NCBI GenBank assembly: GCA_951406725.2 | Contig: OX597819.1 | Span: 64,170,001 to 64,234,000, forward strand | Length of the DNA: 64,000 nt | From: Octopus vulgaris | Lineage: Eukaryota | Reading direction: 5' to 3' | Part shown: piece by piece, positions 6,694 through 62,345 of the stretch | How positions within the stretch are numbered: the first letter of the stretch is position 1 | Layout of the letters: each line of letters opens with the position of its first letter | The notes under the pieces: model-generated | Seen by the model: the letters and a program-made list of their open reading frames with translations, nothing else | The model's database searches: none | Told to the model about the DNA's origin: nothing | Position numbers and translations under genes: made by a program

Positions 6694-6866
6694 GCGCAGG
6701 AGTGGCTGTGTGGTAAGTAGCTTGGTTACCAACCACATGGTTCCGGGTTCAGTCCCACTGCGTGGCAACTTGGGCAAGTGTCTTCAACTATTGCCTAGGA
6801 CCGACCAAAGCCTTGTTAGTGGATTTGGATGACGGAAACTGAAAGAAGCCCGTCGTATATATGCAT

Positions 6867-6961
<95 letters not shown>

Positions 6962-7181
6962 TGTATATGTTTGTGTGTCTCTATTTGTCCCCCCAACATC
7001 GTTTGATAACCGATGCTGGTGTGTTTACGTCCCCGTTACCTAGTGGTTCGGCAAGAGAAACCGATAGAATAAGGACTAGGCTTACAAAGAATAAGTCCTG
7101 GGGTCGATTTGCTCGACTAAAGGCGGTGCTCCAGCATTGCCGCAGTCAAATGAATGAAACAAAGAAAAGAGTAAAAGAGTA
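6694..7181 (+). mobile_element. tRNA-derived SINE family A, full length
   Basis: Head GCGCAGGAGTGGCTGTGTGGTAAG..GGTTCAGTCCCA, internal (CA)/(TA)/(TATG) tract, AAAGAGT tail. Eight copies or fragments in the window. Confidence 0.92.
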
Positions 7182-7303
7182 AAGAGAGAGTAATGGCAAT
7201 AAGGAAAGCTCGAACTCTAAATAATATAAAAATGAAAGAAATATATTTAATATATGATGGTATACAATCTACACAAAAATGTGTGCGTATATGAGTTTGT
7301 GTG

Positions 7304-12247: not shown

Positions 12248-12344
12248 CATACATTCATATATATATATATATATATATCTATATATATATATACGTACAT
12301 ACATACATTCATATATATATATATATATATATAATTAATTAATT

Positions 12345-12618
12345 AATAAGGGTGAGAGAATTAGATACTAATTTAATAGCATATCTATTCAACACCAAGT
12401 GGCCTAGTGCTCCGAGAAACCTGGATTATTATAATATTTTATAATATATTATAATATTTTTACAAAATAAATATAAGAGAGTGGTCACTATATGGCTCAC
12501 TCTAGCACTAGTTAATCCAAAAGGTTTCAATGGGAAACATGTATTTTTGTGGTTGAAACCTTTTGGATTAACTAGTGCTAGAGTGAGCCATATAGTGACC
12601 ACTCTCTTATATTTATTT

Positions 12619-12619
<1 letters not shown>
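12345..12619. mobile_element. PLE-type pLTR tail with perfect foldback
   Basis: Begins AAGGGTGAGAGAATTAGATACTAATTTAAT like 21328. Perfect 67 bp inverted repeat at 12464-12530 / 12553-12619 with a 22 nt loop. (TA)n on both sides. Confidence 0.8.
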
Positions 12620-12711
<92 letters not shown>

Positions 12712-13030: not shown

Positions 13031-13089
13031 GACAGTTCAACTTAGCTTAGATGGCGTATTCGGAAAATATTGCCTTACGTCATATTTAA

Positions 13090-13411
13090 AATAAGGGTGA
13101 GAAATTAGATATTAATTTAATTAACATCGATTTCACACCAGTGGTCTAGCATTTAAAAAAAATGAGGTTCAGTACAACTGTATAATACCTATATTAGAGG
13201 GAAACCACTATGTGGACACCCATATGTTAGAAATAGATCCGCTACAGTTTCACGACCAAGAAATGTTCTCAAGAAAAATTTTGCAAAACAACCAAAACGT
13301 AATCGAGCAAGACAAAAGAAAAAGTAATAAAAATAAGGATTATTCGTATACATCCGTAGCAGATCTATTTCTAGCGTATGGATGTCCACATAGTGGTTTC
13401 CCTCTAATATA
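13090..13411. mobile_element. PLE-type pLTR tail with inverted repeat
   Basis: AAGGGTGAGAAATTAGAT head. About 56 bp inverted repeat at 13190-13245 / 13356-13411 with a few transitions. Related to 21328-21820. Confidence 0.75.
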
Positions 13412-14267
13412 TATTCTATATATTTATAAGCATTTAATGCTTAACTTTTGGCATGTTTATCGTGTTAAATTTCCGTTTTTTCACCTCACTTGAAAACGAC
13501 TACGTTAAATTGGGTTCATGTCCTCAACTTCTTCAATGCACTCTAAATACGTATCGATTCCCATCGTCCGTGTATGCATGTCTGGCAGCTTGCTTACATC
13601 CACAATGTTCTACCCACATACCGTCGCACGCTTATGAACAGTCTCACATCAATTACTCTAGTTGATTTGTTCATGTCAAAAATTGCAACATGATTCGATG
13701 TATAAAACATATGCCTACGCTATAATAAATTCGATTATAGTTATCGCATGCAGCGTTATAAAATGTCAAGGCATATGCACGATGTTGTGAGATAACCAAG
13801 AAATATAATTAGAACACACTTGAAAACAGGATGTTACGGGACCTGAAATTATGACACACTTAATTCATTTATGAAGAGACACTCCAGAGAAGAAAAAAAT
13901 ATAATTGAAACAAAAAGGAGAAAAATGAAAGCAAATAATTGTACGAGTTTAATCATCGAGCACATTTGATCGACCTAATAATTTAATGAGTATGCCTCCA
14001 TTTGGACGTCAACTACGTTACTTTAATCAGGTGGTGATGCTTAGCTAGTAAATGCGTAAATAAAAATATAATTAAGCAAATAAAATGAATCTTCCCAAAT
14101 TATAGACACCCGCAATCATAAAAACATGAATGATTATAACTACATCCATATATAAATGAATGTAAACACATATATAAAAATGCATATATATTTATGTAAC
14201 TGTACATATATATATGTATATGCGTGTGTGTGTGACCTTAAATAGTACGTTTTTATCTAAGTATATT

Positions 14268-15154: not shown

Positions 15155-15196
<42 letters not shown>

Positions 15197-15212
15197 TTAA
15201 TTTAAAATTTAA

Positions 15213-15263
15213 AATGAGGGTGAGAAATTAGACATTAATTTAATTAACATCGATTTCACACAA

Positions 15264-15264
<1 letters not shown>
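15213..15264 (-). repeat. Isolated pLTR tail fragment
   Basis: GAGGGTGAGAAATTAGACATTAATTTAATTAACATCGATTTCACAC is nearly identical to 13093-13138 and is embedded in (TA)n. Confidence 0.75.
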
Positions 15265-16536: not shown

Positions 16537-16631
16537 ATATTTGCCACTCAAATGTGGCAAAGCCATAAGTGTGGATACAAGCTACAGTAGCATCCACACT
16601 TATGGCTTTGCCACATTTGAGTGGCAAATAT
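16537..16631. repeat. Perfect 40 bp inverted repeat (hairpin)
   Basis: Arms 16537-16576 / 16592-16631. The loop itself contains GCTAC-A-GTAGC. Abuts (TA)n. Confidence 0.9.
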
Positions 16632-18886: not shown

Positions 18887-18944
18887 TATTCAAACATCTC
18901 AGGAGAATGCTTCTTAACTCGGTTTCATCATAAAGTCTCTCCAG

Positions 18945-19022
<78 letters not shown>

Positions 19023-19073
19023 CTGGAGAGACTTTATGATGAAACCGAGTTAAGAAGCATTCTCTTGAGATGT

Positions 19074-19080
<7 letters not shown>
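18887..19080. repeat. 194 bp near-perfect palindrome with (TA)n centre
   Basis: 60 bp arms at 18887-18946 / 19021-19080 with one mismatch, around a self-complementary (TA)n spacer. Confidence 0.9.
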
Positions 19081-20555: not shown

Positions 20556-20932
20556 TTCTTCTTCTTCTTCTTCTTCTTCTTCTTCTTCTACTTGTTCTTT
20601 TTCTACTTCTCATTATTGTCGTCATCATTATCACCATCATGGTTATCATCATCATCATCATCATCGTCGTCGTCGTTGTTATTATTATTATTATTATTAA
20701 TAATAATAAAGATAATAATAATAATAATCAGAAACACGCACACACACAGGCACAAACATACGCAAATACACACACACACAGGCACAAACAAGCGCAAATA
20801 CACACACGCACACACACATACACATACACATATATGTATATACATACCTCCAAAATGTATTTATACTCACATTCATGTATGTATGAATAAACATATACAT
20901 ATACCTATACATATATATATATATATATATAT

Positions 20933-21818
20933 AGAGTAAACACTATGTGGTCGACTCTAGCACTAAAAATAGATCCTCTAGGTTTCAGCCACAGAGAATT
21001 GTTTCCGATGAAAGTTAGCACGACTACTAGCGCAAATGAACAGGGCAAATAAAAGTAACAAAAATGCAGATTAGTTCAGGACAAATGTTTCGCTATTAAT
21101 AAATTATGTAATTTTACTCACATAACATATCTGTAGCTCTTCAGCCGAACCCGTCCAGAATACAATTTACTCAACCGCACACTAGATTTTACCATAACGA
21201 TAAACACACGTGCGGTTCAGTCGATTGCATTCGCTGTTATAATTCAAGTGTCCCTGCCACAGCCCGCCAAAATTCACGGAAACAGATGCTACATCCAAAA
21301 TTAAATGCAGTATAATTACAATCAACTAAGGGTGAGAAAATTGGATACTAATTTAATAGTACATCCATTTAACACCAAGCGGCTTATTGCATAAAAACCT
21401 GGATTACGATAAATTTTATACATAAATATAAGAGAGTAACCACTATGTGGTCGACTCTAGCACTAAAAATAGATCCGCTAGGTTTCAGCCACAGAGAATT
21501 GTTTCCGATGAAAGTTATGTGAGTAAAATTACATAATTTATTAATAGCGAAACATTTGTCCTGAACTAATCTGCATTTTTGTTATTTTCATTTGCCCTGT
21601 TCGTTTGCGCTAGTAGTCGTGCTAACTTTCATCGGAAACAATTCTCTGTGGCTGAAACCTAGCGGATCTATTTTTAGTGCTAGAGTCGACCACATAGTGG
21701 TTACTCTCTTATATTTATGTATAAAATTTATCGTAATCCAGGTTTTTATGCAGTAAGCTAGTTGATGTTAAATGGATGTACTATTAAATTAGTATCCAAT
21801 TTTCTCACCCTTATTAGT

Positions 21819-21820
<2 letters not shown>
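20933..21820. mobile_element. HHR-containing PLE pLTR or retrozyme-like element: 500 bp partial tandem plus inverted copy
   Basis: Direct repeat with period 500 (CACTATGTGG at 20941 and 21441). Inverted arms at about 21328-21517 / 21623-21812. 21518-21707 is the reverse complement of 20933-21125. (TA)n at both ends. Confidence 0.85.
21074..21150 (-). ncRNA. Type I hammerhead ribozyme
   Basis: GTTCGG-CTGAAGA-GCTA..TAGC-GAAA-CATTTG-TC^CTGAAC. Stem I 6 bp, stem II GCTA/TAGC, minimal stem III, GUC triplet, predicted cut between 21080 and 21079. Confidence 0.82.
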
Positions 21821-21894
<74 letters not shown>

Positions 21895-26429: not shown

Positions 26430-27070
26430 ATATTTGCCTTACTGACATCACATTTGAATATATAACAAAACTTGAAGGCTGGCTATCAAGTCTTTTCTAT
26501 CATTTATTACATGTCAGCATTATATGAACTATAATCGTAAAAAAAACATTACTTAAATATTTATCTTTCAAAATATATAGTAGAGTAAATATAAAGATTT
26601 TAAAACGTGGGAGGTTTATTTGATTATGTAACTAATTTCAGCTCATAGTTTAATATAAACATTTTGGGGGGATTTTTGTAACTAAATTACAGGTGTTTTA
26701 TACATATCAGTTCAGTATCAAAACCCACGAAAAGTAAAATATCAACAACATATATTTGCCTTACTGACATCACATTTGAATATATAACAAAACTTGAAGG
26801 CTGGCTATCAAGTCTTTTCTATCATTTATTACATGTCAGCATTATATGAACTATAATCGTTAAAAAAATCATTACTTAAATATTTATCTTTCAAAATATA
26901 TAGTAGAGTAAATATAAAGATGTTAAAACGTGGGAGGCTTATTTGATTATGTAACTAATTTCAGCTCATAGTTTAATATAAAAATTTTGGGGGGATTTTT
27001 GTAACTAAATTACGGGTATTTTATACATATCCGTTCAGTATCAAAACCCAAGAAAAGTAAAATATCAACA
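26430..27070. repeat. Near-identical tandem duplication, period 322 bp
   Basis: 26430-26748 is repeated at 26752-27070 with scattered substitutions. Confidence 0.9.
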
Positions 27071-27194
27071 ATGATGTATATATGATTATAGAAATGTATG
27101 TATCTGTGCAGCATATTCACACTAACATACACATAAACACAAACATACACACACACACGTGTGCACGCGTGTGCGTGTACCTGTACATATGATT

Positions 27195-38572: not shown

Positions 38573-39115
<543 letters not shown>

Positions 39116-39199
39116 ATATGCAGATATATATGTATCTTGGTGTTTGTATCCGAGTAAAAAATAAAATAAAAGGTCAATGAATATTTAATAACGACTGCA

Positions 39200-40065
39200 A
39201 ATTTCTGCCACAAGGGAAGCTTGTGGGAGAGGATGAAGGTGACTACATCGACCTCAATGCCTAACTGGTACTTATTTCACCGACCCCGAAGCGATGAAAT
39301 ACGAAGTCGACCTCGGCCGAATTTGAACTCAGAATGCAGCGACGAGCAAATTGCTATTTAGCCTCTTGCCACGCGTGCTAACCATTCTTTTCTACTCTAG
39401 GCACAAAGCCCGAAATTTTTATGGAGAGGGCAGTCGAATAGATCGACTCCAGTACGCAACCGGTTCTTAATTGATCGTTCCCGAAAGGATGTAAGTCAAA
39501 TTCGACCTCGGAGGAATTTGAACTCCGAACGTAAAGACAGACGAAATACCGCTAAGCATTTCGCCCCGCGTACTAATCATTCTGCCAGATCGCCGCTTTA
39601 GATGAATATATAATTATGATTTAAAATTTTTCGACAAGGGCTGCAACTTTGGGGGAAGGGATGAGTCGATTACACCTACCTAGTGATCAACAGGTACTCA
39701 TTTTATTGACACCTAAAGGATGAAGTGTAAGGTCGATCTTGGCAGAATTTGAACTCACAACGTAGTGATGGGTGAAATAGCGCTAAGCATTTCGTCCAGC
39801 ATGCTAACGATTCGACGAGCTCGCCGCTTTCTGATGAACATTTACTATTGCTTTCTACTGGAGGCACAAATCCTCAGATTTGTGGGGAGTGGACTAGTCG
39901 ATTACATCAGCCCAAATGTTGCACTGGTACTTAAGCTATCGAACCCGAAAGCATGAAAGGCAAAGTCGACCACGGCAGAAGTTGAACACAGAACTTAGCG
40001 ACGGATGAAATACCGCTAAGCATTTCATTCAGCGTGCTAACCAATCTAGCAGCTTGTTGCCGTCT
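39200..40065 (-). mobile_element. Four head-to-tail copies of tRNA-derived SINE family D
   Basis: Repeated ACTGGTACTTATTT.ATCGACCCCGAAAGGATGAAAGGCAAAGTCGACCTCGGCGGAATTTGAACTC..GCTAAGCATTTCG units at about 39200, 39390, 39620 and 39850. Confidence 0.88.
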
Positions 40066-40083
40066 GATGAATATTTAATAATA

Positions 40084-40498
40084 CTCTTTTACTCTTTTGC
40101 TTGTTTCAGTCATTTGACTGTGGCCATGCTGGAACACCGCCTTTATTCGTGCAAATCGATCCCAGGACTTATCCTTTGTAAGCTTAGTACTTATTTCATC
40201 GGTCTCTTACGCCGCGCCGCTATGTTACGGGGACGTAAACACACCAGCATCGGTTGCCAGGCGATGTGGGGAGACAAATACAGTGGCGCAAACATATACA
40301 CACTCATACATTATATATACATATATAGATATATACGACGGGCTTCTTTCAGTTTTCGTCTACCAAATCCACTCACAAGGCTTTGGTCGGCCCGAGGCTA
40401 TAGTAGAAGACACTTGCCCAAGATGACACGAAGTGGGACTGAACCCCGAAACATGTGGTTCGTAAGGAAGCTACTTACCCCACAGCCACTCCTACACC
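40084..40498 (-). mobile_element. SINE family A, full length
   Basis: Reverse complement of 6694-7181. Confidence 0.9.
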
Positions 40499-41310: not shown

Positions 41311-41513
41311 AAATAGAAAGATGAATAATCTTGTAGTAGATTAATCAAAAGTTTAACCGATACCTTAGTAGCAAAAATCACAGCAGTAAACAGCACGGTT
41401 GGAGGTACAACCATATGGTGTTGCAACCGTGCGTTGGTGCGGATAATTGAAATTAAAACATTATTGGTGAATTGAAGAAATGGAGCTGAACGCAGATTGA
41501 AGAGAAATCGTTT

Positions 41514-41607
41514 TATTTCATTCTACACGTGTTTCGAAAGGCACAAATTACCAAAATCCGATTGAATAATGGGACCATATTGTGTCTTTCTCTTCAGGAA
41601 GAAAATA
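41514..41607 (-). ncRNA. Type I hammerhead ribozyme (inverted copy)
   Basis: Exact reverse complement of 41965-42058. Confidence 0.85.
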
Positions 41608-41964
41608 GGAAATCCGTTGGAAAAACAAAAACAGAACAGAGGCGGAGCAAAAACAAATCGAACTATGCTCCTAAGAGCCCATGGCGAAACTGTTTATCAG
41701 TGTATGTTGAGAACCGGTGGCTGAAGAATTTAACGAGTCAGGCACCGGTCAATCATGTGGGTGAGGGTGTGTAGGTGTTCTTTGTGACCGAGAATAAAGT
41801 TCTGACTATTTAAGGAATATTGGATGTTTTATAAGGGGCGAGAAAAATCTACTTAGAGACGTGTGTGTGTGTATACTGTTCTATATATGTGTGTGTTGGC
41901 GTAGGGGTAGAAAACATTTTTGTGTACGTGTGTGCGTTTGTTTTTGTTTTTCCAACGGATTTCC

Positions 41965-42058
41965 TATTTTCTTCCTGAAGAGAAAGACACAATATGGTCC
42001 CATTATTCAATCGGATTTTGGTAATTTGTGCCTTTCGAAACACGTGTAGAATGAAATA
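41965..42058 (+). ncRNA. Type I hammerhead ribozyme
   Basis: TATTTTCTTC-CTGAAGA-GAAAGACACAA..TTGTGCCTTTC-GAAA-CACGTG-TA^GAATGAAATA. Stem I 9/10 pairs, stem II 10/11 pairs, palindromic ACACGTGT stem III, GUA triplet, predicted cut after 42048. Confidence 0.87.
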
Positions 42059-42113
42059 AAACGATTTCTGTTCAATCTGCGTTCAGCTCCATTTCTTCAA
42101 TTCACCAATAATG

Positions 42114-42163
<50 letters not shown>

Positions 42164-44217: not shown

Positions 44218-45535
44218 GCGTCCCGATGGTCAGGCGATCCATTTGCTGTCAACACCCGTTAAAAGGAGGGCTGGGCATGCCGTGGTTGATGATGCGCAGA
44301 CACGCGCTGAGACTGCGACATCTCTGGCTCTATGTAGACGACGGTGAACAGGTGTGGTCGCCGTTTGTGAGGCACGCTTTCCCGCAGCTCGTCTCCATGA
44401 CCGAACTGCAGTCGTGGATCAAAAAGAGGCCGAAGTAGGGCGAATGGCACCGCGAGTGTCGCGTTGCTCTCAAGCAACTCTGCCGTCCTGGGTCGACCTT
44501 GAGTGACTTCAACACAACCAAAGCATTCTATAGGGGTTTAGTGGAGGGGAGGTACGACGACGAGCTCGGGGCGAACCTGGACGTCGACGAGGAGTACCTG
44601 ACCCGCCTGTTCAGGACGACTTTCGGGCCAGGGCCCATGGACAACTTCCAGAGATCCCTGGCCTGGCAGTGCTACCGAGAAGCGCTACCCGTTCGGGATA
44701 AGCTCTACAGACACGGCTCGAGAAACACGGGGCCGACCTGCCCGAGATGCGGTCAGAGCGACGAAACCGTTCTGCACGCACTCGTGCAGTGTCCAACAAT
44801 TTCCGACCTGTGGGCTTGTGTTGAACAACTGCTGTCACGTGTGGGACGAGTCGGTTTATCAGCTGAGTCTATCGTTAATATTGTCACGCCTCTCTCCTTC
44901 AAACGGGAAGGAAGAGCTATTTTCATCATCCTTGTGGCTATGGCGAAAGAATGTATCTGGTGGACGCGTCTGAAAGGATTGGAGACAAACACTTTCCTCT
45001 CTGGTCAATCTCTCATCAACTTCTTCAAGTACCACTTGAAAAGGAAAGTGAGAGTAGAGAGGCAAGTTTTGTCTAGCGAATGTTTTAAAAAAGATGGGTG
45101 AATGTAGCAAGAATGGCACGTATGAATGACGAAGCCACCTTGAGCATGATCCTATGAACCCAGAAATTGAAAACAGAGAGTTGCTTATTTGCAAAAAAAA
45201 AAAAAAAAAGAAATATAACATGTGACTCCATTGACCGAGGTTACCGTGGTCTTTTCCGTAGGCTTTTCTTTCCGCGGGTAAACCTCACCTGTCCTCCCCT
45301 TTACACTTCATATTGACATTTCTGTGATAAAGATCCCTATTGATCAAATTTTTTTTCCTCTCCCCCTTTTTTTTAACCCCCTTTTTTTGTCCTCTTTCTC
45401 TCCTTTTACGATCCCTTTTGATCGAAACTCCCCCTTCCTTTTTTCTTTTTTTTTTTTTTAAACCTTCAAAAGAAAAGCTCTACCTTGTAATTTGTTCTAT
45501 CTGTGTGCAGCCCTGTGTGGCTAATAAAGAAACAT
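44218..45535 (+). mobile_element. 5'-truncated Tx1/L1-clade LINE inserted in (TATC)n
   Basis: ORF2 C-terminus QHPLKGGLGMP..WQCYREALPVRDKL..CPRCGQSDETVLHALVQC..W (CCHC knuckle). One in-frame stop at 44436-44438 and a frameshift near 45090. Pyrimidine-rich 3' UTR with AATAAA. TATC repeats on both sides. Confidence 0.9.
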
Positions 45536-47942: not shown

Positions 47943-47974
<32 letters not shown>

Positions 47975-47989
47975 CTTATATTCATATAA

Positions 47990-48394
47990 AAGAAGAAAAA
48001 GGTAAATGGAAATTGTGAAGTTAATAATTGTTTCTTATGAATAGCAAATTGTTCATCTTCGCTTACAGCTGTCTCAATTATTACTCAGTAAATTGTAATT
48101 AGATATAAAATTCATATGTATATCTTCAGAGGAAGACATATCCCTTCGGATGTTTAATATGAGTTTATGGATTCATTATAGCAAACTCACAAAACTGCTA
48201 TAATGAATCTATAAATTTATAAAACATCCAAGGATATAATTCTTTCCTCAGAAGTTATTAGGCTTAAGTGATATAAATATAAATTTACTATTTAATGTTT
48301 ACTGATTACTAACTTAGACAGCTGAAAGTAAAGATGATTAATTTAGCTTGAATAATAAGCAATTATTAACTTCTCAATCTCCATTTTCTTTTTC

Positions 48395-48400
<6 letters not shown>
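47990..48400. repeat. Old, diverged inverted repeat with about 200 bp arms
   Basis: 47990-48184 versus 48196-48400: AAATGGAAATTGTGAAGTTAATAATTG / CAATTATTAACTTCTCAATCTCCATTT and GATTCATTATAGCA / TGCTATAATGAATC. Lies between (TA)n runs. Confidence 0.8.
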
Positions 48401-48482
<82 letters not shown>

Positions 48483-48621: not shown

Positions 48622-48683
<62 letters not shown>

Positions 48684-48688
<5 letters not shown>

Positions 48689-48905
48689 GGGACAGGCAAA
48701 ACAGGTTGCTTGACCGCATACCGAAAAAATAGAAATAGCAGTCAAGAATGCTTATTTCTATCAAAGTTGGACTCGGGCATGACAGACCCTGAATTGCAGG
48801 GTCTGTCATGCCCGGAGTCCAACTTTGATAGAAATAAGCATTCTTGACTGCTATTTCTATTTTTTAGGTATGCGGTCAAGCAACCTGTTTTGCCTGTCCC
48901 TTTTT
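48684..48905. repeat. 108 bp near-perfect hairpin with 5 nt loop
   Basis: Arms 48684-48791 / 48797-48905 with one substitution and one indel. Continues to a TTATTTACTCTTA-(TA)n tail at about 49035. Confidence 0.92.
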
Positions 48906-49036
48906 CTTATATACAATATATATACTGAACTTTACAGAAGTTCCTGCCGGTAATCGGCTATATTTACATACCGAATTCTACCAGTAAATAATTGGGGTTT
49001 TTTTAAAAGCCTTTATAGAAATTATTTACTCTTATC

Positions 49037-57440: not shown

Positions 57441-57627
57441 ATAAATCTGCACATATACATACATTCATACATGCATAAATATATGCACACACAAACACAC
57501 ATATATATGTGTATGTGTTTGTATGTGTGTGTGTGTGTGTGTGTCTATATATATATATGTGTGTGTTTGTGCAGGTGTCTATGTGTGCGTGTGTGTGTAT
57601 ATATAAATATACATATATAAGGATATA

Positions 57628-58005
57628 CTTTTTTCTCTTTACTCTTTTACTTCTTTCAGTCATGTGACTGTGCCCATGCTAGAGCACCGCCTTTAGTCGA
57701 GCAAATCGACCCCAAGACTTATTCTTTGTAAGCCTAGTACTTATTCTATCAGTCTCTTTTGATGAACCGCTAAGTTACGGAGACGTAACCACACCACCAT
57801 CTGTTTTCAAGTGATGTTGGGAGGACAAACACATACGCGCAAACATATATATATATATACATACATATATACCACGGGCTTCTTTCAGTTTCCGTTTACT
57901 AAATCCACTCACAAGGCTTTGGTCGGCTCGAGGCTATAGTAGAATATATTTGCCCAAGTTGTCACGCTGTGAGACTGAACCCGGAACAATGTGGTTCATA
58001 AGCAA
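57628..58005 (-). mobile_element. SINE family A
   Basis: Reverse complement of 6720-7181. Confidence 0.9.
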
Positions 58006-59196: not shown

Positions 59197-59200
<4 letters not shown>

Positions 59201-59602
59201 ATGGAACGTTGATAGGTAAAGTTCCTTCTTTTTAGTGTTTCCAAATCCAAATTAAGAAATCTTGAGCTGACGAAAGAAATGCTGATTTTATTTGGCTAAT
59301 CTTGAAACGTTGACGTACTCAAACGATCTATGTACTTGTGATATTTTTCTGTATTTACCCCCAAACCTTCGTGAGCTGTCTGGAGTAAACATTATCTGAG
59401 AGAAATTTTCTTTAAGTAGTAGAAATGCTAAGAAAAAAATTTTTTTGGCTGCTATTTCTACTAAGTTCAGTATGTGGCAAAGTAATTTATTTTACTAAGC
59501 CCTAATTATATAATGTAATATTTTGAATTCGCCTTAAATGGTCCTTTTACATACTGAACACTTGGTGAAATTGATTAATTAATTAATTTTACCCTCAGTT
59601 GT

Positions 59603-59605
<3 letters not shown>
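59197..59605 (+). mobile_element. Solo pLTR or retrozyme-like monomer (about 410 bp) between (TA)n runs
   Basis: Contains an HHR. Ends CTTGGTGAAATTGATTAATTAATTAATTTTACCCTCAGTTGTTG-(AT)n, the same tail type as 21760-21820. Confidence 0.8.
59262..59322 (+). ncRNA. Type I hammerhead ribozyme
   Basis: TTGAG-CTGACGA-AAGA..TCTT-GAAA-CGTTGACG-TA^CTCAA. Perfect 5 bp stem I, all core nucleotides intact, GUA triplet, predicted cut after 59317. Confidence 0.85.
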
Positions 59606-59644
<39 letters not shown>

Positions 59645-59649
<5 letters not shown>

Positions 59650-60338
59650 TTTAACAATTAAGGATAACCTCTTAATAAGGAATCTTAACAAGAAATTATC
59701 GGGTAGTTAGCGTGAAAACCTCATAAAAGAAAAGAATTCGAAAATAATTTTTTTCTTTTGAACAAATTAATTATATCTATATTGTATAGAGGGCATTATT
59801 ACACATAAATGCCTCACACTAAGAGGGACTAAGTCATTACTACCAAAATTATACTAATCATACCCAAATGCAGTTTTTCAAAGCAAGACATTTAAAAAAA
59901 TGAATTTAGTTCTGTATCACCGTGAATTCACATTCAACTTGCGTCTTATGATCCTCAGCAGAACTGATTCTGAACACATCATAAATAAACTACCAACCTT
60001 ACGGAGCGAAGACGACCAGACAACTGATCACTCCGGCCAAGCACATGGAATGTTTATAAATCATATATCCGGTAAATGGCGGGCTTTTTACGAACTGCAT
60101 GTCGGGTAATAAAAAGTATTTCGGAATAAGTTTAACAATTAAGGATAACCTCTTAATAAGGAATCTTAAAAAGAAATTATCGGGTAGTTAGCGTGAAAAC
60201 CTCATAAAAGAAAAGAATTCGAAAATATTTTTTTCTTTTGAACAAATTAATTATATCTATATTGTATAGAGGGCATTATTACACATAAATGCCTCACACT
60301 AAGAGGGACTAAGTCATTACTACCAAAATTATACTAAT
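59645..60338 (-). mobile_element. HHR-containing partial tandem element, period 481 bp
   Basis: Near-identical direct repeats at 59645-59858 / 60126-60338. Abuts (TA)n. Confidence 0.85.
59908..59965 (-). ncRNA. Type I hammerhead motif with core substitution
   Basis: AGTTCTG-CTGAGGA-TCAT..ATGT-GAAT-TCACGGTGA-TA^CAGAACT. Perfect 7 bp stem I. GAAA reads GAAT and the first stem II pair is mismatched. Confidence 0.7.
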
Positions 60339-61115: not shown

Positions 61116-61277
61116 CATATGTTTATTTATTATGTGTTTAGTTATGTGTTAAAATCACAAGCGAAACCCCATAGCAATAGAAAGTTATACAATAGAATAT
61201 CACAACGTGTTTGTACTTGCGCCACAAAAGAGAGAAAAAAAATCAGGAAAATACAATTATTATTCTTATCATTAAAA

Positions 61278-62345
<1,068 letters not shown>

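Follow-up and report, generated by a model that had tools for sequence, protein, structure and literature searches.

Structure of the locus and its hammerhead motif

The window analysed here is a 64-kb (64,000-nt) stretch of Octopus vulgaris genomic DNA that is AT-rich (GC 0.27–0.42 per 2 kb), has plentiful microsatellites and, except for a LINE fragment, is without long protein-like frames. Between two of its (TA)n runs lies an insertion composed of two arms of one repeat, arm A on the minus strand and arm B on the plus strand. We number positions in the repeat unit as u = 21518 − p, where p is the position in the window, and take the minus strand as sense. The features of the locus are the following:

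20893..20933, no strand assigned: left (TA)n target run
20933..21517, minus strand: arm A, 585 nt, that is, 585/500 = 1.17 units (u1–585), 5'-truncated at u1
20933..21017, minus strand: 3' copy of an 85-nt direct repeat (pLTR-like partial tandem), with private changes at 20977 and 20940
21018..21517, minus strand: one 500-nt non-coding unit
21074..21150, minus strand: type I hammerhead with a 6-bp helix I, CTGAAGA, a long helix II, GAAA and a short helix III; predicted cut 21080/21079
21433..21517, minus strand: 5' copy of the 85-nt direct repeat, all 85 nt of which match arm B
21514..21517, no strand assigned: GTTA, a 4-bp microhomology common to the 5' ends of arms A and B
21514..21822, plus strand: arm B, 309 nt, inverted and 5'-truncated, starting within helix II at u392 and ending at the 'long' end site (u197–200)
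21708..21822, plus strand: one-sided, tail-like 3' extension of ~115 nt at the end of arm B, missing from the end of arm A
21821..21880, no strand assigned: right (TA)30 target run

The two copies of the direct repeat (20933–21017 and 21433–21517) are spaced by exactly 500 nt and are 98% identical, with 2 differences, and none of the six frames of the doubled unit exceeds 67 codons. The 3' end of arm A lies at the 'short' site u85, or at up to u101 if the end has been eroded by (TA)n. Aligned to the unit, arm B crosses the predicted cut site at 21560/21561, wraps and runs on to u197–200, which takes it ~115 nt past the point where arm A stops. The arms are joined head-to-head through the GTTA at 21514–21517, and four or more shared bases are found in 2.2% of 200,000 random inverted joins of the 500-nt unit. 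Because both 3' ends face outward into (TA)n, no target-site duplication is readable. The unit has no LTR, PBS or tRNA head, no tRNA gene was found in the 64-kb window, and no open reading frame with reverse transcriptase (RT) and GIY-YIG domains was identified in the unit or the window, where 5 of the 94 frames were scanned against Pfam. The first-pass annotation had described a minus strand with 1.17 units of a non-coding monomer, fused through the 4-bp GTTA to a plus-strand copy that starts in stem II of the hammerhead; the repeat spacing and the frame lengths bear out the monomer, the window sequence contains the fusion, and arm B does begin inside helix II. The inversion junction is bridged by none of the contigs listed from seven public runs and is known from the window sequence.

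Helix I of the hammerhead is formed on the minus strand by GTTCGG (21150–21145) and CTGAAC (21079–21074), the core boxes are CTGAAGA (21144–21138) and GAAA (21091–21088), and the 46 nt between these boxes hold helix II, which opens with GCTA/TAGC and G10.1-C11.1. The predicted cut falls after C 21080 (u438), and helix III is ACATTTGT in both arms. A hammerhead descriptor matched twice in the window compared with 5 times in 20 block-shuffled windows. Rfam gave no match in the window at gathering score; the match to HH9 is weak (18.2 bits against a threshold of 52, E 0.18), and the remaining 19 of the 20 Rfam rows (E up to 10), which belong to miRNA, sRNA and snoRNA models far below threshold, were discarded. 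Minimum-energy folds of the ribozyme alone miss the active fold, as is expected given the short helix III. The locus has only one complete ribozyme, since arm B holds just the 3' half of the motif in the opposite direction, and therefore could not release a monomer by two cuts. The two consecutive complete ribozymes that Li et al. take as the mark of an active element are absent from this copy, which leaves the family unaffected.

A family of closed units in public contigs

Part of the stretch is present in 20 of the 24 public runs listed (10 studies). Contigs were placed on 21018–21517 in two sets, the first at 82% likeness with 569, 285, 292 and 52 contigs from four runs and the second at 96% likeness, also from four runs; X1 is common to both sets, giving seven runs overall, and in neither set is contig depth a measure of copy number or contig cover a measure of expression. 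Contigs cover all 30 bins of the unit in 4 of 4 runs. Contigs with other letters come from other copies; among them, X1 records 1 and 2 span the cut site, X4 record 22 and X5 record 29 span the long end site at 21326, and contigs of X3, X4 and X5, one form being 2 nt longer, span the wrap from 21517/21493 to 21018. Because variant copies cover the whole unit and bridge its ends, they constitute a family of non-coding monomers and not just a truncated coding element. Continuation into unlike sequence accounts for 1–4% of placed contig sequence in the 82% set and 0–3% in the 96% set. The first-pass annotation had named a case against itself, in which other copies always extend into the open reading frame of a Penelope-like element (PLE); this is not what the contigs contain, and its reading of the stretch as a retrozyme or pLTR-type insertion of a non-coding monomer is upheld by the cover and the bridged ends. 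Its monomer of exactly 500 bp holds for this locus but not beyond it: three extra bases behind 21326 are found in 4 of 4 runs (82% set) and also in arm B, so that the family unit is ~503 nt and the figure of 500 is particular to this copy. None of the contigs listed has the 3-nt-short form seen in arm A.

The contigs also bear on the hammerhead. In X1, X5, X3 and X4 (82% set), respectively, 99.9, 99.95, 96 and 100% of contig depth carries at 21085 the letter with which helix III becomes an 8-nt palindrome, and 69, 94, 18 and 91% carries at 21078 a change that turns a G-U pair of helix I into G-C. Both arms have a non-family letter at 21085/21555 (u433) that makes up 0–4% of contig depth at most, and the energy of helix III self-pairing is −6.4 kcal/mol for the family palindrome compared with −2.9 kcal/mol at this locus. 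The hammerhead described as intact-looking in the first-pass annotation is thus intact in its core but has lost the palindrome held by 96–100% of contig depth in 4 of 4 runs. As sequence comparison goes, family variation at 21078 and 21085 supports the putative hammerhead. In tandem source arrays the ribozyme would act as a dimer; this locus, with one complete motif and a broken palindrome, is predicted to be a dead end. Folded as a circle, the sense unit reaches −140.1 kcal/mol compared with −109.4 (sd 4.7) for 40 shuffles (z −6.5) and −98.0 for the antisense; the z value of the sense unit folded linear is −4.45. The circle fold, the G-C change in helix I and the family palindrome in helix III are counted for a possible RNA-level constraint on the sense unit.

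Contig depth is uneven along the unit: it falls 17- to 41-fold across 21324 in all four runs, and most of it sits in modules round the ribozyme and the two end sites. These features favour an alternative in which the 500-nt unit represents no more than the pLTR and 3' end of an autonomous Penelope-like element, the period arising from two successive 5'-truncated copies, as do loose ends of related subfamilies that continue past 21327 in diverged sequence, and both 5' truncation and a partial tandem are usual in PLEs (PMC8557442). We nevertheless consider this alternative very unlikely, as the low-depth body (21222–21323) is covered by contigs with 2–23 other letters, which in several runs extend across its two edges, only 0–4% of placed sequence runs on into unlike sequence, no frame is longer than 67 codons, and the unit folds well as a closed sense circle. 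The bridging contigs also point to dimers or arrays of the 503-nt unit at other loci.

Related subfamilies diverge from the unit at 21327, 21169, 21480 and 21493, as judged from loose contig ends. Some of them may lead into an open reading frame, and an autonomous relative sharing the repeat is expected; an ATG in a related subfamily past 21327 could be the start of such a frame. A hairpin module upstream of the ribozyme (21171–21221, minus strand) is where contig depth peaks in X1 and X4, and it is common to subfamilies that pass into different sequence at 21169.

Recurring end sites and other elements in the window

The window contains further members of the family, and each end site of the unit is preceded by a hairpin:

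12332..12630, no strand assigned: diverged relative, two arms head-to-head between (TA)n; BLAST E 4e-22 and 1e-9
13085..13427, no strand assigned: more diverged relative, two arms head-to-head, outside (TA)n; BLAST E 9e-12 and 2e-6
15194..15264, minus strand: 70-nt piece of the family, flanked by (TA)n runs, with its end at the long site
21342..21367, minus strand: hairpin just before the long end site
21433..21458, minus strand: hairpin just before the short end site

In both two-armed relatives the minus arm, which at 13085–13427 starts from ~u441, ends at the long site and the plus arm at the short site, and the join at 12332–12630 falls at TTTCA/TGAAA, a hairpin intrinsic to the unit. Each of the 3 two-armed insertions in the window thus has one arm with a long end and one with a short end. 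Long ends lie near u192–208, after CTCACCCTTA, and short ends near u85–109, positions that the AT-rich ends blur by 10–15 nt; the two sites are ~100–115 nt apart, and neither of them is the ribozyme cut (u438). The first-pass annotation had expected other copies to be circular permutations of the 500-mer; instead of being random, the 3' ends recur at these two sites, away from the cut. The long-end motif CTCACCCTTA has 5 matches in the window compared with 0.06 by chance. For a 13-nt short-end motif with 2 mismatches there are also 5 matches, a number reached by 3 of 100 shuffles and therefore not clearly above chance. An exact scan of metagenome and viral contigs with a 26-nt end motif returned no loci. 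Loose contig ends enter (TA)n just past 21327 (X5, X9 and X11) and at 21417, or u101 (X9 and X11), and contigs from X11 contain another head-to-head join with a short arm ending in TATAT.

At the short-site hairpin 3 of 11 pairs change on both sides and 4 of 11 are broken in some arms when 6 arms of 3 insertions are compared, and at the long-site hairpin, compared across 4 arms, both sides change in 2 of 9 pairs and one arm has 2 of 9 broken; these comparisons rest on only 3 independent insertions. If ends were picked independently, one long and one short end in 3 of 3 insertions would be expected 1 time in 8, and we therefore treat a one-long-one-short rule of the family as a lead and not as a result. 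The long-end motif could also be read as a candidate splice acceptor. In arm B, 4 of the 5 private changes fall within 13 nt (21753–21765, plus strand) and create TAGTTGAT, the same 8 bases as at the long end site, by either chance or a short template switch.

Several other elements were identified. At 59197–59605 (plus strand) a 409-nt insert between (TA)n runs holds a second type I hammerhead motif with its core at 59267, a predicted cut after 59317 and a longer helix III, and the 3' end of this insert resembles the long end of the 500-nt family; its alignment score of 132 lies below the maximum of 158.5 in 100 shuffles, and it was not counted as a relative. Beside the same (TA)n run, 59645–60338 is a partial tandem with a 214-nt direct repeat (99% identical, period 481) and on the minus strand at ~59910–59970 a degenerate hammerhead-like core whose helix I has 6 bp; it is possibly another young element of this kind. 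Inverted repeats with arms of up to 180 nt that are 73–99% alike abut (TA)n at 16537–16631, 18887–19080, 41454–42118, 47946–48440 and 48663–48924, and all five are likely further head-to-head insertions of other families. A two-copy tandem of 323 nt (26430–27071, 97% identical) has no hammerhead by the descriptor. The 220-codon frame at 44439–45101 (plus strand), with a zf-RVT domain (PF13966, E 2.3e-8), is the 3' end of a LINE-type retrotransposon and not of a PLE. A SINE-like repeat, whose dispersed copies are 75–90% alike, and a degenerate ~230-nt tandem occupy seven spans (1368–1736, 6694–7186, 38600–39140, 40082–40493 and 57606–58005; 39177–40093 and 61256–62200).

Template, insertion and comparison with known systems

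Arms A and B differ at 8 of 300 shared positions and by the 3-nt indel. Relative to the contig majority, arm A has at least ~9 private substitutions in 585 nt, among which the call at 21037 rests on a loose-end consensus, and arm B at least 5 in 309 nt (from 40 of 80 variant rows). The similar private loads, ~1.5% in both arms, fit mutation after insertion, to which assembly errors may add, and the shared non-family letter at u433 would fit a single template or source array, a fold-back or conversion between the arms. The private letters at 21251 and 21589 are absent from 4 of 4 runs (96% set), so the insertion may be missing from those animals. Both arms cross the predicted cut site without a scar, which implies that the template was uncleaved or re-ligated RNA, and since arm A is in addition longer than one unit, the template would have been a circle or an uncleaved multimer. 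We lean slightly towards an uncleaved tandem transcript and regard a ligated circle as a serious possibility. The first-pass annotation had attributed the locus to reverse transcription of a circular or multimeric RNA and called it a complete snapshot of the process. The former stands as far as a circular or greater-than-unit-length template is concerned, the two forms being indistinguishable here; the latter goes too far for a copy with one complete ribozyme, private changes and a layout that circle and uncleaved tandem explain alike.

The layout is the footprint of a Penelope retrotransposon, and insertion was therefore likely carried out by a Penelope enzyme. In our view the locus is probably a mutated copy of an abundant ~503-nt non-coding hammerhead repeat, a non-autonomous Penelope-like element of the retrozyme type, that was primed from both nicked strands. 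We infer all of the enzymatic steps as follows. A Penelope reverse transcriptase-endonuclease would act in trans on a (TA)n run and nick both strands of the AT-rich target, and each free 3' end would then prime reverse transcription at a fixed internal site of the RNA, u85–101 or u197–200, each lying just after a hairpin. Both cDNAs would run back across the uncut or re-ligated ribozyme site, that of arm A for 1.17 units, stop early and be joined 5'-to-5' via 4 complementary bases. Counting against insertion by Penelope in trans are the lack of an identified PLE frame in the window (5 of 94 frames scanned against Pfam), the relative at 13.1 kb, which lies outside (TA)n, and the tail of ~100–115 nt compared with 30–40 nt in published work; a single template, moreover, must put the 8 differences in 300 and the 3-nt indel between the arms down to later mutation.

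A more specific form of two-strand priming, which we hold to be possible but on balance doubtful, is that one hammerhead-processed RNA circle of 503 nt was copied from both nicked strands by a dimeric Penelope enzyme, past a full turn, with the two hairpin-marked sites ~110 nt apart serving as start sites. If true, it would provide the missing genomic proof of the retrozyme life cycle, explain the inverted pLTR and the one-sided tail of Penelope in a single step, and offer a minimal 500-nt substrate for a test in vitro.

The inverted arm could also have arisen by fold-back, whereby a cDNA primed at the long site would self-prime at GTTA/TAAC and copy itself back, after which the endonuclease would trim the tail from one end. 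Fold-back would explain directly the private letter shared by 21085 and 21555; self-priming has been proposed for head-to-head PLE inversions (PMC3846280), the tail has been ascribed to resolution by the endonuclease (PMC8557442), and the relative at 12.3 kb is joined at the intrinsic unit hairpin. The main argument that makes us consider it improbable is that arm B exceeds by 115 nt the portion of arm A available to template it, so that the extra trimming step is needed. Furthermore, the two ends match the two start sites of an RT that extends both strands in vitro (PMC11167929), and arm B matches the 5' copy of the 85-nt repeat and not the 3' copy, a weak point since the changes may be later. 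It is more improbable still that the inversion was produced by fold-back in the library or an error of assembly, or that DNA in an AT-rich array was rearranged later. The unbridged junction in seven runs and the letters at 21251 and 21589, which are missing in 4 of 4 runs, would suit such an origin; on the other hand, 8 substitutions and an indel between the arms, with changes private to each, are unlike a recent chimera, the family has two further head-to-head insertions in the window, with others present in the contigs, and each arm ends at a family end site.

We therefore return to two-strand priming of a non-autonomous repeat and compare it with published systems. The hammerhead is like the type I hammerheads of metazoan repeats and PLEs (PMC4209133) in its core, in G10.1-C11.1 and in its 6-bp helix I, and the family shares with them a helix III of 1–2 bp with a palindromic loop and predicted action as a dimer, whereas here a long helix II separates the core boxes by 46 nt, there is no extra base between 9 and 10.1, and at this locus the palindrome is broken. 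Non-autonomous PLEs of Chlamys such as MRC1 (PMC8557442) are likewise non-coding PLE derivatives that form pLTRs and head-to-tail insertions, but they are found in green algae and belong to a clade without canonical hammerheads.

Among retrozymes, circular RNAs of 170–400 nt are described in coral, mussel and axolotl, for which PLEs are put forward as the likely helpers (PMC7229834), and retrozymes with consensus lengths of 51–972 bp have been linked to pLTRs (Li, Clavereau and Pollet 2026, 10.64898/2026.07.22.740005); in the latter work 1 of 9 Xenopus dimers was cleaved in vitro and 8 of 9 were not. Metazoan non-LTR retrozymes of both papers resemble the element described here in having a non-coding, low-GC unit with one type I hammerhead, a head-to-tail repeat, strong self-pairing and proposed use of PLE enzymes. 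At 500 nt, the unit falls within the range of Li et al. but exceeds the invertebrate circles (PMC7229834), and this locus, known from DNA alone, is with 1.17 units and one complete ribozyme below the two-unit criterion for activity of the former authors. A term search of the main texts of these two papers found no mention of inverted arms, tails or octopus, and we found no description of this family or of inverted arms in retrozymes in the largely open-access literature searched, although supplements may list cephalopod repeats. Circle-templated tandem cDNA has been proposed for retrozymes (PMC7229834) as well as for PLEs (PMC4209133).

The closest likeness is in the layout of endonuclease-bearing (EN+) PLEs, whose typical insertion comprises a partial tandem, an adjacent inverted 5'-truncated copy and a tail of 30–40 bp at one end (PMC8557442, PMC3846280; the same layout again in PMC8969392), and pLTR sequences alone are reported to be enough for mobilisation in trans (PMC3846280). 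At AT-rich DNA, both strands are cut and extended by a purified PLE, which does not depend on ribozyme cleavage and whose start points are two internal sites of the RNA that delimit the tail (PMC11167929). EN+ PLEs (PMC3846280, PMC8557442, PMC11167929) and the present insertion have in common the partial tandem, the 5'-truncated inverted head-to-head copy, a ribozyme in the repeat, two internal end sites and an AT-rich or microsatellite target; (TA)n flanks this insertion and those at 12.3 kb and 15.2 kb on both sides, but not the one at 13.1 kb. They differ in that the unit here has no RT or GIY-YIG frame. An extension at one end, which may correspond to the PLE tail, is present in 3 of 3 insertions but measures ~100–115 nt compared with 30–40. 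The Penelope footprint itself (partial tandem, inverted 5' copy, one-sided tail, AT-rich target) and the derivation of animal retrozymes from Penelope are already known. What is new here is the observation, to be taken as a lead, that in all three two-armed insertions in the window one arm ends at each of two recurring sites ~100–115 nt apart. Papers on retrozymes propose mobilisation by Penelope with little evidence from the structure of insertions, and papers on Penelope describe inverted pLTRs and tails whose origin is left open; a protein-free unit with what looks like the whole Penelope footprint links the two literatures. This locus is one aged example and its value lies in the family, for which arms with one long and one short end are a clear prediction of two-strand priming.
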